From: a virus
Lineage: Duplodnaviria; Heunggongvirae; Uroviricota; Caudoviricetes
Reading direction: 5' to 3' (one strand)
DNA length: 23,803 bases
IMG/VR virus record: IMGVR_UViG_2534682161_000021
Location: 1 to 23,803 of that record
The notes under the pieces were generated by a model. The model ran no database searches. It was not told where the DNA came from and was given only the letters and a program-made list of their open reading frames with translations. Position 1 is the first letter of the stretch. Every line of letters starts with the position of its first letter. A program made the translations under genes and the position numbers. Below, one piece after another: positions 9,226 to 15,229 of the stretch.

Positions 9226-9810
9226 AGCCTGCTTCTCCTTGCCTTTCGGCACGTAAGAGGCTAACCTACGTGTGCAAGTCATAGATATGGCCTCAGATTA
9301 ATGTTAGGCGTCTTGCAGGACGCGTAATGTTAACTGGGGCTTTTCTCTATCTGCCGTTGGTATTCATGCCTGAGACAGATAGCCTCAAGCACCCGCAGCA
9401 ATCCTACTTAACTCCCGTCACCTCGCCAATATAAAATCAATCAGAAAGGCGATCCATAAGAACAACAGCAAGACAATAAATTGCCATTACAGCCGCAATA
9501 GCGAGCGCACATTTGAGAACCAGCACGACAACCTCCTGTATTGGACGTACACCAGTCCTGATAAATATGAGGCTGTCTCATCATTGATTCAATAAAACTA
9601 TTGGGAATAGTTTCTGTGATTTTGTTCTGTAGAAATGGAACACAACAACCAGTCACCACCAGCACTTCTTTAAAAACGCCAAGTCCGACGCAAGCTAACC
9701 TTCTAGTCCGCTTTGAACGATGAGCGGAAATTGACATATCTGTTAAAGTGAATGGTTCGTTTTGCAGGGATACTTACACTGCCCCCTGTCAAAATGATAT
9801 ACCGAAGAAT

Positions 9811-9815
9811 AAGAG
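9811..9815. repeat. IS2 target-site duplication, left copy (AAGAG)
   Basis: AAGAG immediately flanks both IS2 ends. Confidence 0.85.
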
Positions 9816-9906
9816 TAGACTGGCCCCCTGAATCTCCAGACAACCAGTATCACTTAAATAAGTGATAGTCTTAATACTAGTTTTTAGACTAGTCATTGGA
9901 GAACAG

Positions 9907-10272
9907 ATGATTGATGTCTTAGGGCCGGAGAAACGCAGACGGCGTACCACACAGGAAAAGATCGCAATTGTTCAGCAGAGCTTTGAACCGGGGATGACGG
10001 TCTCCCTCGTTGCCCGGCAACATGGTGTAGCAGCCAGCCAGTTATTTCTCTGGCGTAAGCAATACCAGGAAGGAAGTCTTACTGCTGTCGCCGCCGGAGA
10101 ACAGGTTGTTCCTGCCTCTGAACTTGCTGCCGCCATGAAGCAGATTAAAGAACTCCAGCGCCTGCTCGGCAAGAAAACGATGGAAAATGAACTCCTCAAA
10201 GAAGCCGTTGAATATGGACGGGCAAAAAAGTGGATAGCGCACGCGCCCTTATTGCCCGGGGATGGGGAGTAA
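9907..10272 (+). CDS. insC: IS2 transposase OrfA (InsC)
   Basis: [56 protein letters not shown]... with an HTH domain; the track start at 9862 is an upstream extension. Confidence 0.9.
10224..10230 (+). promoter_or_regulatory. AAAAAAG slippery heptamer for programmed -1 frameshifting (insC to insD)
   Basis: A6G motif at the insC/insD overlap, the standard IS3-family frameshift signal. Confidence 0.6.
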
Positions 10273-11135
10273 GCTTAGTCAGCCGTTGTCTCCGGGTGTC
10301 GCGTGCGCAGTTGCACGTCATTCTCAGACGAACCGATGACTGGATGGATGGCCGCCGCAGTCGTCACACTGATGATACGGATGTGCTTCTCCGTATACAC
10401 CATGTTATCGGAGAGCTGCCCACGTATGGTTATCGTCGGGTATGGGCGCTGCTTCGCAGACAGGCAGAACTTGATGGTATGCCTGCGATCAATGCCAAAC
10501 GTGTTTACCGGATCATGCGCCAGAATGCGCTGTTGCTTGAGCGAAAACCTGCTGTACCGCCATCGAAACGGGCACATACAGGCAGAGTGGCCGTGAAAGA
10601 AAGCAATCAGCGATGGTGCTCTGACGGGTTCGAGTTCTGCTGTGATAACGGAGAGAGACTGCGTGTCACGTTCGCGCTGGACTGCTGTGATCGTGAGGCA
10701 CTGCACTGGGCGGTGACTACTGGCGGCTTCAACAGTGAAACAGTACAGGACGTCATGCTGGGAGCGGTGGAACGCCGCTTCGGCAACGATCTTCCGTCGT
10801 CTCCAGTGGAGTGGCTGACGGATAATGGTTCATGCTACCGGGCTAATGAAACACGCCAGTTCGCCCGGATGTTGGGACTTGAACCGAAGAACACGGCGGT
10901 GCGGAGTCCGGAGAGTAACGGAATAGCAGAGAGCTTCGTGAAAACGATAAAGCGTGACTACATCAGTATCATGCCCAAACCAGACGGGTTAACGGCAGCA
11001 AAGAACCTTGCAGAGGCGTTCGAGCATTATAACGAATGGCATCCGCATAGTGCGCTGGGTTATCGCTCGCCACGGGAATATCTGCGGCAGCGGGCTTGTA
11101 ATGGGTTAAGTGATAACAGATGTCTGGAAATATAG
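10230..11135 (+). CDS. insD: IS2 transposase OrfB (InsD), DDE catalytic domain
   Basis: 301-aa frame overlapping insC in the -1 frame; recalled InsD sequence. Confidence 0.9.
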
Positions 11136-11146
11136 GGGCAAATCCA

Positions 11147-11586: not shown

Positions 11587-12285
11587 ATGAAAAAAGAACT
11601 TGAAACCATACTGCCTGAGTTTGGTGAGGCAATTCGCCCTTACGTTTATAGTTACGTAACAGCAAACAAAAATGCCAATGCCAAGCACGTCCTGTTTATG
11701 GCTGGTTCGCCTGCTGCAGGTAAAACCGAGCTCTTAAATCGTCTTTTAGAACAACATGGCATCACAAACATTGTTCGAATTGATGCTGATGATTTTCGCT
11801 GGTGGTTCCCCTACTACAATGAAGAGAACTCTGTGGACTATCAGAGACCTGCCTCCAGAATGGTCGATTTTATCTACAAAAAAGCGCTATCTGAAGGCTA
11901 TCCCATTGTTATGGACTCTACTTTCTCCAGTATAGGTATTGCGGAGAGAAACTTTGATCTGGCCCTGAAGGCTGGTTATCAGGTAGCACTGAATTACGTC
12001 TATTTTGATCCGGCTTACGCGTGGGTTTTTGCCCAAGCCCGCTCTCGTAAGGTTCCGTTAGAGGTTCTTAAAGCGAACTTTTTCAAGAGCAGAGAGACCA
12101 TTGAACATATGCTCGCGAAATATGCAGGCCTATTTACACTCAATGTTTATCATCGACGGGAAGATCCTGAAAATGATGGTCAGTTCGTGGTCGACTATAC
12201 TCCTAACGTGACCCTTGAAAACTGGACTACCTCCCATAGCTGCCCATATTCAGACGTTAGCGATCTAGCGCATTTAGGTGTATAA
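11587..12285 (+). CDS. zeta-toxin-like P-loop kinase
   Basis: Walker A MAGSPAAGKTEL, followed by RIDADDFR and then MDSTF, the arrangement of zeta/PezT-type kinases. Confidence 0.6.
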   Translation: MKKELETILPEFGEAIRPYVYSYVTANKNANAKHVLFMAGSPAAGKTELLNRLLEQHGITNIVRIDADDFRWWFPYYNEENSVDYQRPASRMVDFIYKKALSEGYPIVMDSTFSSIGIAERNFDLALKAGYQVALNYVYFDPAYAWVFAQARSRKVPLEVLKANFFKSRETIEHMLAKYAGLFTLNVYHRREDPENDGQFVVDYTPNVTLENWTTSHSCPYSDVSDLAHLGV

Positions 12286-12310
12286 TAAGTGTCCTATCTA
12301 AGGAGTGTAT

Positions 12311-12937
12311 ATGTCTGTTAAAACTGAAGCCATTAAACCAGCTGCTGAAATTTCGTTGTTCGATGCATTCGGACCTAACGTGAGCGAGCGGGTACAAGCC
12401 ATCAACCGGAAGGCCGCTGAGCTTTCTATGGCTGATATGGCTCAGGTAATGGACGTGACATTATCGTCTAGGAAGAAACTGGAAGTAACTGCTGAGAGCA
12501 AATATATTCTCGATTTGCCTCAATGGCTAGAAGTCAATGCACGGAAACCTGGAGTTTCTTTTGACATGAAAGCATACACTTCTGTTGAAGTTAACAAGAT
12601 GCATGTTCCTGACTTTCGCCAGTTCCTTCCTGTAGGTGCAAATATGTTGCATACCTATTCACCAATCGGTAAAACGGGCCTGCAAGGAATTCATGATTAT
12701 TTAATCGGTGCTGTTTCATCTAAACTTCATCACTTGCAAGGTGTCGGAGTTGATGAGGGCACGTTTAAAATACTTATCCGCTATGAAGATGCTAAAACGG
12801 GTGCTCCCCGCAATGATATAGTTGAAGCTGAGTCGACAATTAGCCCAAGTTCTTTCACTAGGCTCAAGCCCCGTGTGAAAAAACTTCGCAGAAAAGGTCA
12901 TGAAATGGCGATGCATGCACTAATTGCCAAAAAATAG
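12311..12937 (+). CDS. hypothetical protein (208 aa), co-transcribed with the zeta-like kinase
   Basis: AAGGAG 5 nt upstream of ATG 12311 (the track start at 12305 is GTG); 25-bp gap after the kinase; followed by a terminator; no family recognised. Confidence 0.5.
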   Translation: MSVKTEAIKPAAEISLFDAFGPNVSERVQAINRKAAELSMADMAQVMDVTLSSRKKLEVTAESKYILDLPQWLEVNARKPGVSFDMKAYTSVEVNKMHVPDFRQFLPVGANMLHTYSPIGKTGLQGIHDYLIGAVSSKLHHLQGVGVDEGTFKILIRYEDAKTGAPRNDIVEAESTISPSSFTRLKPRVKKLRRKGHEMAMHALIAKK

Positions 12938-12980: not shown

Positions 12981-13475
12981 TCTGGCGTTCTAAAAGTCAA
13001 TCACTCCAGCTCACCAGCGCGGTTAATCTCTAAAACCGATTTAGTTTTCGGCATAGTGCCCTTCGTCGTCTCTTTCTGCGTACATCAAACAACATCTACG
13101 GCCCATAGCGGATCACCATCAGCATGCAGCCACTGACTGGTTAAAGTCTCCTTTTCGTTTATCTTAGCAAGCTGGTACTGCGTGTGGATCCCGCCCATTT
13201 CTGCATACTGTCGAAAATCGATGAGATGGCCAGTCGTGTTTGTTATTGGTCTATTTTTGAAAACAACTATCAATGCTATTGGTCTGTTCTTCGTTAATTA
13301 ATATGCAATCCTTTCATGACACAGGGCTACTGTTACAGCCCTGACAACCTTAGACTTCAATCGATTCAGAGATCTCTAACGCATCATCGCCCCGTTGAAC
13401 TCACAGCGATAAGTAGACGCTGGCGGCAATAACACAGAAGTATAGCGGGAATTTGAACCACATAATTTATGTTTG

Positions 13476-13928
13476 TTAGATGGCTTTGCTTCGATATTCA
13501 ATTTCTAAAATCGCCTTTGTCATTGCCGCAATAGTTATAGCTTCTACCATAGTTAATTCAGGCCTGTTCAAGCTTCCGTGTCCAGCAGTAGGTAGTTTGT
13601 TGCGTAAATCATAAATATCTTTAACAATATCAATAAGATTCTTAGGTAATTTTGACATTTTTTCGAACTGTTTAAAAAAACCACCCAATGACTCATTTGC
13701 CACATTCGGGTTTTGAGTGATTTCCTTCGCCATAGTTTCTAGAATATTAGAGGCTGCGTGCAGTGCACCCGCAGGGTCATTATTATCCAAGCAATTATTC
13801 ATTCTATCTATTTGCTGAATGATATTTGGATGCAATCTCTTTAAGTAATCACTAGCCAATTCTTCATTGAAGTTTTTGACACTTTCAAAAACATCGCAAT
13901 CTAAATAAAATTTAGGATTGACTGACAT
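13476..13928 (-). CDS. hypothetical protein (150 aa); downstream half of a frame split by an in-frame TAG
   Basis: Very AT-rich; same frame as 13998-14342 with only one stop codon between them; C-terminal R-x7-H (RNKLPTAGH) vaguely HEPN-like. Confidence 0.4.
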   Translation of the reverse strand: MSVNPKFYLDCDVFESVKNFNEELASDYLKRLHPNIIQQIDRMNNCLDNNDPAGALHAASNILETMAKEITQNPNVANESLGGFFKQFEKMSKLPKNLIDIVKDIYDLRNKLPTAGHGSLNRPELTMVEAITIAAMTKAILEIEYRSKAI

Positions 13929-13997
13929 CCATGTATATTTCCAATCATTTTCTAAATTATCTTTTTCCGCACTACGCCTGCCAGTATCCTGATCTAT

Positions 13998-14342
13998 CTA
14001 ATCAACATATTTACACATATAATCGGCGTAATAGTGTAAATATCTAAATGATATTTCTGGGCAAAAATTACTAACTGATGCAAGGCCGCCATATTCTTTT
14101 GTAGTAACTGTTGGGACTTCTTCATCACATAAATATGAGAAACTAGTTCTTTCCCCAAATTCGCCCAACTCTTTTTCTTTCCTAGTTGCCATACCAGCTA
14201 TCATATTGATGCTTGAGAGCAAAACTACACTCTGATAGTACCGAGGACATCTGTATGAACTAGCATATGGGCATTTTGATGATGCTTTACGATTAATACG
14301 CTCTTTTTCCCACCAATTTTTATCAGGAATAATTCTTTGCAT
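13998..14342 (-). CDS. hypothetical Cys-rich protein (114 aa); upstream half of the split frame
   Basis: Ends at TAG 14000-13998; the next 23 codons are open and in frame with the ATG at 13928. Confidence 0.4.
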   Translation of the reverse strand: MQRIIPDKNWWEKERINRKASSKCPYASSYRCPRYYQSVVLLSSINMIAGMATRKEKELGEFGERTSFSYLCDEEVPTVTTKEYGGLASVSNFCPEISFRYLHYYADYMCKYVD

Positions 14343-14806
14343 AATTTATGCTACTATCTCACGAGTGAATGAATGTTTAGCCTTCTGCACAGTTTATCAG
14401 TTCCGGCATACCTACTGCTACCCCACTGATTCAACTTTAAGTTATGGATTAAAGCGATTCGGTTTCGCTAGATGACACACTAGTGTTAACTTATGGATAA
14501 AAATTTATCACTTAAAATTAACTAATGACTGTAGCGACCAAAAGTGTGCCAGAATGTTATTTTCGTCTGGCCTATTATCAATCTAATTACCCAAATTAAA
14601 GTTACTCTCCTTCATCAGCAAAAAATAAATACGCCTGTTCACTTTCTCAAAGTGTTCCTGTGTTATTTTTAAAGTTAACAACGCCGTCTATTCGTCCAAA
14701 TGTACAACAAACATCAGACTCTGGCACAACGCTGACAATGAGAATAGTTCTAGCCCTGTGCCACAGAAATGTCAATTCACATATGTATTAATGCTCTTTA
14801 ATCTCG

Positions 14807-15229
14807 TCACTTCAATAAATAGCGAACATTTCCCTGATAAAATGCCAACACTCGCTGCATTACTTCACTTTCCAGACACTCGCGACAAACCATGTTATGG
14901 CGACTATCGTAGCGACGAATTTCTCCGTCAGGTAATGACCAGATAAGGTCCGGATCAACCATAGACGGTTTCTTCCCCTTTGCCCTCGATAGTTTTTTGC
15001 GGGCGTTTTGCCAGTCCTTACGAGCCTGTTCTGACGGGAATAACCCATAGCCAGAGTTGTATACATCGCCACTGGCAACCAGCTCCCAGGCAAGAACGCT
15101 AATCAGATATCTTGTCGCACCTGTTTTAGCTTCCAGCTGTCGTAACGTCTCGCGCCCACTCTGGCGTACGAGTGCAACAACCTGTCCCTTAATTTTTTCC
15201 CGCTCTTCTTGTGTAAAAACTTTTGCCAC
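14807..15229 (-). CDS. hypothetical protein (140 aa) directly downstream of the O-like initiator
   Basis: GTG start with AGGAGG 5 nt upstream; sits where a helicase loader would be but has no recognisable DnaC or lambda-P features. Confidence 0.45.
   Translation of the reverse strand: MAKVFTQEEREKIKGQVVALVRQSGRETLRQLEAKTGATRYLISVLAWELVASGDVYNSGYGLFPSEQARKDWQNARKKLSRAKGKKPSMVDPDLIWSLPDGEIRRYDSRHNMVCRECLESEVMQRVLAFYQGNVRYLLK

Follow-up and report, generated by a model that had tools for sequence, protein, structure and literature searches.

The closest described relatives of the protein considered here are AbiJ (Abi-859) of Lactococcus and SadR of Staphylococcus aureus. Like it, they are single polypeptides of about 280 residues with a variable N-terminal domain and a C-terminal HEPN domain of the Abi_C type, an R-N-Xn-H-G motif, and carriage on mobile elements. 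The motif of Abi_C proteins has been reported as R-phi-X(2–6)-H, with 5 as the typical spacing, and in the Abi_C ribonuclease (RNase) SadR, where it reads RNEYGDAH, mutants of the R, N or H lose both RNase activity and defence (PMC13590631). HepS of the Salmonella prophage Gifsy-1 and Tha of S. aureus prophages offer a second point of comparison: each is a single HEPN protein, encoded by a prophage, that serves abortive infection as sensor and executor in one. The tail-tip protein J activates HepS, which cleaves tRNA anticodon loops, and Gifsy-1 must evade its own HepS (PMC13043305). Here we analyse a gene of this general plan on the minus strand of a viral stretch of 23,803 nucleotides (IMG/VR record IMGVR_UViG_2534682161_000021, hereafter the window), which is a Rac/lambda-like prophage of Escherichia coli. 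At positions 13,476–14,342 it consists of two open reading frames (ORFs) of 114 and 150 residues parted by an amber codon. The two ORFs are, we are confident, the halves of a single 288-codon gene broken by one nonsense mutation. The explanation that we favour overall, with a probability of roughly 0.7, is an amber-broken and drifting gene whose intact form is a defence factor of the AbiJ/SadR/HepS type.

Translation of the 867-nucleotide frame gives 288 sense codons with TAG as the single internal stop, which bears out an earlier, sequence-only reading of the window: the two minus-strand ORFs share a frame, only the TAG at 14,000–13,998 parts them, and the 23 codons between that stop and the next ATG are open. 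In 20,000 composition-preserving shuffles of these 867 nucleotides the number of in-frame stops averaged 23 with a minimum of 8, and since no shuffle gave one stop or fewer, a near-open frame of 288 codons is not a product of chance. Nor is the TAG a sequencing error, because the same codon occupies position 115 in all 12 independent lambdoid copies read as DNA, from isolates and metagenome alike.

Homologues are uninterrupted. Our search returned 40 clusters from Enterobacteriaceae, Vibrio, Shewanella, Vreelandella and Pseudomonas, every complete one of which is a single ORF of 286–302 residues that is collinear over the junction, and the GTDB species representatives add 13 full-length single-ORF loci from Gamma- and Betaproteobacteria, Desulfobacterota and Deferribacteres. 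The sequence-only reading had named homologues that exist as two genes, or a junction that no homologue spans, as signs against one broken gene; the 40 clusters and 13 loci all span it. The stop itself sits in a conserved Y-x-D-E-I-D motif and a predicted helix, with D114 and D117 invariant. A hidden Markov model (HMM) of the N-terminal domain, built purely from 53 independent short proteins in which this domain stands alone, matches the 114-residue ORF over positions 1–113 (E = 4.5e-29) and continues in the frame beyond the stop over positions 115–167 (E = 2e-6). We therefore reject a two-part system, as the HMM of one domain spans the stop and the homologues are unbroken. Such a system, with the 114- and 150-residue proteins cooperating as, for example, a regulator or antitoxin and a HEPN toxin, would agree with RefSeq, which has two coding sequences (CDSs) in all eight complete genomes that carry the amber allele, and HEPN toxins often do have protein partners. 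It is nonetheless very improbable, given that the split falls inside one compact domain, that no homologue outside the E. coli amber lineage is shown split at this site, that the nearest intact relatives (97% identical) are fused, and that invariant residues of the N-terminal piece are being lost.

The nature of the lesion emerges from comparison of alleles. Megablast of positions 13,300–14,700 against 5,426 complete E. coli genomes gave 18 full-length matches; eight, at 99.4–100% identity, are annotated as two hypothetical proteins, and ten, at 95.7–96.1%, as a single hypothetical protein. We tabulated codon 115 at the DNA level, the table spanning 10–18 alleles. The lambdoid copies (12 in all: the window, five RefSeq/GenBank chromosomes, six further assemblies and one ENA metagenome contig) invariably read GTT GAT TAG ATA around this codon, whereas the copies of three P2-like prophages (L001, L008 and L009), about 96–97% identical to the window gene, read GTT GAT GAG ATA and thus encode Glu115. 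Because P2-type alleles have GAG where lambdoid alleles have TAG, the lesion is a G-to-T transversion that turns Glu115 into amber. The island copy of NCTC9064 (L003), at 80% nucleotide identity, has GAA at codon 115, and the intact orthologues WP_016569949.1, WP_032317446.1 and WP_096835767.1 are each one CDS of 867 nucleotides. Residue 115 is not strictly fixed, since a Salmonella allele has Ala there. The allele comparison that the sequence-only reading had proposed as a check thus finds a sense codon, GAG or GAA, at the stop position in relatives. That reading had left a choice between a nonsense-inactivated gene and a two-part system, of which the first stands (GAG in intact alleles, a stop inside one domain) and the second falls. 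The two RefSeq hypothetical proteins are one amber-broken gene, and the annotation should read pseudogene.

One database entry appears to contradict this. P0001, the representative of a 141-member cluster, has Gln at position 115, and we considered it as an intact allele or as a case of recoding under code 15 (TAG as Gln). We rejected both, as the underlying DNA (L004, positions 619–1485, an ENA metagenome contig) reads TAG and the table is 11; the Gln is a gene-calling artefact in which TAG was translated as a sense codon, and the sequence should be used as an "intact" allele only with caution. The entry bears on whether the TAG could be read through, either leakily or in a programmed manner, with partial suppression by a supE-type tRNA or by codon context supplying a low level of full-length protein and so taming a toxic effector. 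The frame is indeed open over all 288 codons in 12 of 12 copies, and one public gene caller did render the TAG as Gln, but that rendering is the artefact just described. TAG also ends five other genes of the window's prophage, among them Q, the repressor and a replication gene; neither a tRNA gene nor a phage-encoded suppressor tRNA was found within the window; and W63G, R34Q and S38R, all at invariant positions, argue against selection on a full-length product. Read-through is therefore hardly credible.

Two 150-residue products, P0198 from Salmonella and P0201 from E. coli, carry P2-type residues (IVQQ, IDAVKD and LNKPEL), unlike the lambdoid lineage. Such products hint that the gene was disrupted independently in other lineages, ahead of M139.

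After the stop, the gene seems to have continued to change. At the DNA level, five nonsynonymous changes (E12K, R34Q, W63G, R123L and V239I) and three synonymous ones have arisen within the amber clade, and the window copy carries W63G and V239I. The GGG codon of W63G is present in 8 of the 12 TAG alleles, and TGG in all intact alleles. Among protein variants of the amber lineage, P0199 has R34Q together with S38R, and P0202 has G254R. The family alignment is invariant at R34, S38 and W63, whereas G254 adjoins the putative catalytic His. Such later changes at invariant residues suggest a gene drifting since the stop arose, in the direction expected of a pseudogene, although the counts are small. 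The branch that joins the amber clade to the intact P2 alleles has 7 nonsynonymous and 12 synonymous changes. The crude ratio of nonsynonymous to synonymous substitution rates is 0.14 on that branch, and within the amber clade it is about 0.6 with earlier counts of 5:2, or about 0.4 with the counts of 5:3 (by hand).

The distribution of these changes along the gene could also be read as a sign that the HEPN part has been spared. The 150-residue ORF (M139–I288) would then be translated from its own ATG as a neofunctionalized HEPN protein, active without the regulatory N-terminal domain, and the 114-residue ORF would be debris. The whole HEPN domain is indeed within this ORF, the majority of the Abi_C proteins catalogued with CD-search lack a recognised N-terminal domain (PMC13590631), and the allele is widespread and free of indels. 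The radical post-stop changes seen at the DNA level fall in the N-terminal fragment (E12K, R34Q and W63G), and the HEPN part has only V239I and one synonymous change. However, these counts are too few to show constraint, no clear Shine-Dalgarno sequence precedes the ATG at 13,928, the fragment retains an orphan strand and helix of the N-terminal domain, the amber-lineage variant P0202 has G254R beside the catalytic His, and one would expect toxicity from an unregulated HEPN RNase. We consider a stand-alone HEPN protein unlikely. Returning to the broken gene, its mechanism is most likely dead in the window copy, since the 114-residue product lacks about one-third of its domain, and, for the 150-residue piece, no ribosome-binding site is evident ahead of a start that lies 69 nucleotides past the stop.

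Table 1. Features of the disrupted gene and its cassette, in window coordinates.
Feature	Positions	Strand	Description
Whole disrupted gene	13476..14342	-	288 sense codons, one internal TAG, terminal TAA
5' fragment ORF, 114 residues, ATG start	13998..14342	-	Residues 1–114 of the ~160-residue N-terminal domain; invariant C24, C32, C94
Premature amber codon 115	13998..14000	-	GAG to TAG within conserved D-E-I-D motif
23 open codons from amber to next ATG (13928)	13929..13997	-	N-domain residues 116–138; most of predicted helix 115–128
3' fragment ORF, 150 residues (139–288)	13476..13928	-	Last N-domain strand and helix (with C149), then whole HEPN domain
HEPN (Abi_C-like) effector domain, predicted	13479..13847	-	Residues ~166–288
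Putative catalytic motif RNKLPTAGH (R247-N248-x6-H255, then invariant G256)	13578..13604	-	
W63G (TGG to GGG)	14154..14156	-	Secondary lesion of the window's sub-lineage; tryptophan invariant across the domain family
AT-rich (36% GC) mobile cassette	13238..14729	-	Gene plus 387 nucleotides upstream and 238 downstream; common to P2-like prophages
Upstream non-coding part of cassette	14343..14729	-	Promoter and leader presumed
Integrase remnant, 81 nucleotides	13309..13389		91.5% match to 3' end and downstream flank of a site-specific integrase gene, ~600 E. coli genomes

What the intact gene may do has to be read from its two domains. The predicted structure of the C-terminal region has the four-helix HEPN fold, and on this modelled fold membership of the HEPN superfamily is supported; we set this half beside HEPN toxins, RnlA, Csm6, AbiA, HepS and AbiV. 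The R-x7-H motif that the sequence-only reading had picked out in the downstream half (RNKLPTAGH) is present, running from R247 to H255. In the family alignment the motif L-R247-N-K-L-P-T-A-G-H255-G has its R, N and H conserved at 90% or above and G256 invariant, and in the predicted structure its loop has a low predicted local distance difference test (pLDDT) score. As judged from profile scores, membership of the Abi_C/AbiJ family is borderline: the Pfam model Abi_C (PF14355) gives 23.2 bits for the 150-residue piece and 18.9–20.7 bits for full-length proteins against a gathering cut-off of 24, and E falls below 0.01 in 6 of 33 family members. The protein differs from AbiJ and SadR in that its Abi_C match is below the Pfam cut-off in every member tested, and in its spacer of 6, at the upper edge of the reported range of 2–6. 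The conserved motif would nevertheless be compatible with RNase activity of the intact protein. PHROGs gave weak matches only, and tblastn with the intact protein found no match in the phage GenBank collection.

The N-terminal half is the more widespread of the two. An alpha+beta domain, confidently modelled in the predicted structure and structurally unmatched, occupies residues 1 to about 165. An exhaustive profile search finds this N-domain in 656 clusters (50% identity level), of which 542 have E ≤ 1e-10, nearly always at the N-terminus of proteins of 154–819 residues. Its invariant or near-invariant residues are C24, C32, W63, E74, C94-P-E, D114, D117 and C149, and the invariance of the four cysteines suggests a metal site. 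In 75 longer members we scanned the remainder of the protein with Pfam and found TIR_2 (18), TIR (11), CAP12/Pycsar TIR (5), DpnII/MboI restriction endonuclease (REase; 3) and PLD (2) as fusion partners, along with single members bearing a protein kinase, GGDEF, Schlafen/AlbA_2, SEFIR or Abi_C (E = 2e-14, a distant relative). Many proteins that bear the same N-domain have C-terminal effectors of the PADLOC candidate families PDC-S35 and PDC-S66 or of the ThsB-like and bSEFIR TIR kinds, but the PADLOC profiles cover only the C-terminal effector part (residues 161–324 in P0066), and N-domain proteins that stand alone had no PADLOC match. The short N-domain proteins end in hydrophobic or amphipathic tails.

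We found no relatives of the N-domain in Pfam, PADLOC, NCBIfam or the PDB, where a sequence profile search had a spurious ParA as its sole match (E = 1.1). Anantharaman et al. (2013) described five AbiJ N-terminal domains, AbiJ-NTD1–5, with very similar fusion partners (TIR, REase, HKD, kinase) (PMC3710099). The N-domain is not NTD3, NTD4 or NTD5, as the Pfam models AbiJ_NTD3/4/5 matched none of the 33 and 75 proteins scanned; this, its four invariant cysteines and the lack of a PADLOC AbiJ match set the present protein apart from AbiJ. No conserved cysteines are mentioned for NTD1 and NTD2 (PMC3710099), and the N-domain may be identical with AbiJ-NTD1. We also considered a paired adaptor of the EAD style and rejected it. 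When 16 loci were translated in six frames and scanned with the N-domain HMM, the gene itself was the sole match, and with a second copy in 0 of 16 loci the N-domain is no adaptor of this type. The N-domain heads hundreds of TIR, REase, PLD and HEPN proteins of which defence finders see at most the effector halves, and characterising it could expose a shared mechanism of trigger sensing.

Two groups within the N-domain family have other C-terminal ends. Many members of 170–215 residues (alignment A3) carry short tails that resemble membrane-active effectors, and in a Pseudomonas subgroup (P0034–P0038) the N-domain is joined to a different, unannotated C-terminal region of about 140 residues.

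The gene moves as part of a defined unit. The sequence-only reading had described the locus as an islet more AT-rich than its flanks, located after the replication genes, and both points hold: the islet lies just downstream of the early-right replication genes, and the GC content is 0.352 in the frame and 0.361 in the 1.49-kb cassette, against 0.50 in the adjacent replication genes and 0.464 in the window. In a blastn comparison with L001 the cassette aligns at 95.8% identity and homology ends at both of its limits, from which we conclude that the unit has moved between unrelated temperate phages. For the 81-nucleotide integrase remnant, the match in HKUOPY1 covers the last 40 nucleotides of an integrase gene beside tRNA-Thr and a DUF4145 (HEPN) gene. 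The remnant travels inside the cassette, P2 copies included; recombination probably left it there as the scar of an earlier residence. A scan for promoters and terminators gave promoter-like matches at chance level and no terminator. We looked for a type III toxin–antitoxin arrangement of the AbiF/AbiV kind, which is disfavoured because positions 13,100–14,900 contain no tandem repeats and no match to Rfam, that is, neither an upstream repeat array nor a known RNA. A conserved partner gene was another candidate that we rejected; the convergent ORFs of about 210 residues in the lambdoid and P2 contexts are unrelated and the neighbours differ in every context. With no partner conserved, the gene behaves as a single-gene cassette.

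Intact alleles occupy the same spot as the known cargo of P2. In the P2-like prophages L001, L008 and L009 the gene has the portal gene on one side and the DinI-like/replication endonuclease genes on the other, and the P2 hotspot between portal gene Q and replication gene A holds old, tin and many validated systems (Rousset 2022, Vassallo 2022; PMC9122126, PMC9519451). The gene is not recognised by PADLOC v2 (2023), and the window copy has moved out of the hotspot into a lambdoid prophage, between DUF977 and a zeta-toxin gene. The hotspot neighbours vary, being Septu PtuA/PtuB (E = 1e-121 and 4e-81), a KAP-like P-loop NTPase or a protein of the LPO_1073 family. Elsewhere, the NCTC9064 copy is flanked by a Gabija-like nuclease/helicase pair and DUF4297+AAA genes, the Salmonella copy, at the end of a prophage, adjoins DUF4145 (HEPN) and a GT4-conflict glycosyltransferase, and the Pseudomonas copy lies between NACHT and KAP NTPase genes. 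Vibrio and Shewanella copies are in small islands with ParDE, DUF2971 or a resolvase, and several enterobacterial plasmids carry the gene. In 11 loci of species representatives the surroundings include integrases, TIR, AAA_21, LA2681 HEPN, a transposase, a terminase and many housekeeping genes.

The hotspot of L001 (positions 2914–5922 of that locus), a P2-like prophage of E. coli 120899, is itself of interest. Besides the intact gene, it has a complete Septu system (PtuA, E = 1.5e-121; PtuB, E = 3.9e-81) and an ORF of 217 residues that weakly matches PADLOC RTasHEPN (E = 5e-5). Three candidate defences are thus stacked there.

The 867-nucleotide gene of the AT-rich cassette encodes one 288-residue protein in P2-like prophages and other islands. 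In the mechanism that we propose, the N-terminal domain of about 160 residues would act as sensor or regulator and restrain the C-terminal HEPN (Abi_C-like) RNase until a phage cue arrives. Once released, the enzyme would use its RN-x6-H site to cut RNA of the cell or the phage, and infection would stop. In the Rac/lambda-like lineage the change of codon 115 from GAG to TAG has cut the protein inside its N-terminal domain. As with HepS, the carrier of the window copy is a lambdoid siphovirus prophage (PMC13043305). HepS differs in being a lone HEPN domain, whereas the protein here has a separate N-domain and its window copy is broken. That the parent was an Abi-type defence RNase is fairly probable, judging from architecture and relatives, and the defence role finds support in the partners of the N-domain, almost all of them immune effectors, and in the location of intact copies in the P2 hotspot and in islands with defence genes.

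Alternatively, the parent may have been some other prophage accessory, such as an RNA-binding regulator with an inactive HEPN domain. The protein has no match to validated defence models, some HEPN families are non-catalytic (PMC3710099), and several of the neighbourhoods are mostly housekeeping. Against this, the R/N/H/G motif is conserved, the partners of the N-domain are almost all immune effectors (TIR, SEFIR, REase, PLD, Schlafen), and intact copies occupy the P2 defence hotspot, as well as islands that hold Septu, Gabija-like, NACHT and KAP genes. We think a non-defence parent rather unlikely, and retain the broken defence gene as our explanation.

A number of observations weigh against that explanation. 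On the side of function, phage defence and RNA cleavage by the intact protein are both inferred. None of the 33 family members reaches the Abi_C gathering score of 24, and the R-x7-H spacing is one residue above the canonical Rx4–6H (n = 6 in the R-phi-Xn-H notation). No NCBIfam model matched, and PADLOC v2 (2023) gave only PDC-S32, at E = 0.008 over 65 residues in one allele; the NCTC9064 allele had no match. Since the neighbourhoods of the 11 loci are mixed, they signal defence islands no more than moderately. On the side of decay, relaxed selection is not significant (Fisher p = 0.19, earlier counts of 5:2 versus 7:12), the 12 amber copies contain no frameshift or deletion, and the HEPN fragment may have residual function. 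The 150-residue amber products are also abundant, occurring on 613 and 90 contigs, next to 299, 71 and 434 contigs for three intact variants. This abundance probably reflects hitch-hiking on a successful, partly cryptic prophage, as all 24 contigs read with the amber allele share the same prophage context, and several have insertion sequence (IS) elements.

A broader hypothesis goes beyond the broken gene, and we offer it tentatively, as a possibility rather doubtful at present. The N-domain would be an undescribed, widespread phage-sensing module that drives at least seven classes of effector (TIR, SEFIR, HEPN, REase, PLD, kinase and membrane tails), and the intact 288-residue protein a new single-gene abortive-infection system. 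As a P2-borne defence against lambdoid phages, it would have been silenced upon capture by a lambdoid phage, which would thereby avoid self-immunity at induction. The idea of self-targeting is an analogy with Gifsy-1, which evades its own HepS. Among copies read as DNA, the lambdoid ones all carry the amber codon and the P2 ones are all intact; if the hypothesis is true, this contrast is a small natural experiment in how defence genes turn into liabilities after transfer. According to a recent survey, defence genes of the P2/P4 hotspots turn over fast and seldom appear there as pseudogenes (PMC13586616); in the present case, the pseudogene appears once the gene has been exported to a lambdoid phage. 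Taken alone, the locus is an ordinary pseudogene whose significance is mainly that of a tidier annotation. Its parent family is modestly interesting, as an unannotated HEPN protein, probably with a role in defence, whose gene moves among plasmids, islands, lambdoid prophages and the P2 hotspot.

As for the surrounding prophage, the RefSeq genome MB07081 is 99.98–100% identical to the window over matching segments. Its gene order is Bor, lysis genes, Q, RusA, DUF968, Hok, a zeta-toxin family gene, a hypothetical gene and the two ORFs, followed by DUF977, an HTH replication protein, YdaT, Cro, a CI-like repressor, DicB, an exonuclease, xis and int. Relative to MB07081, the window has an IS2 (IS3-family) insertion at about 9,790–11,146, close to a Hok/Gef remnant. 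In other strains, IS elements have inserted in a replication gene (L018, probably also L020), in the zeta-toxin gene (L021) and near hok (L017); since the insertions differ between strains, the prophage is decaying in several lineages.

Two other parts of the prophage deserve mention. All 24+ copies of the prophage have, in convergent orientation to the broken gene, a plus-strand pair that consists of a P-loop kinase of the zeta-toxin family (11,587–12,285; Pfam E = 7e-29) and a protein of 210 residues (12,305–12,937) that has no Pfam or PADLOC match. The pair, for which no antitoxin was identified, may be another accessory toxin or defence module. In the late region, the minus strand encodes a type II DNA methyltransferase at 3,671–4,756 (PADLOC MTase_II, E = 6.5e-152), next to which we noticed no restriction gene; it is probably an orphan, anti-restriction methylase.

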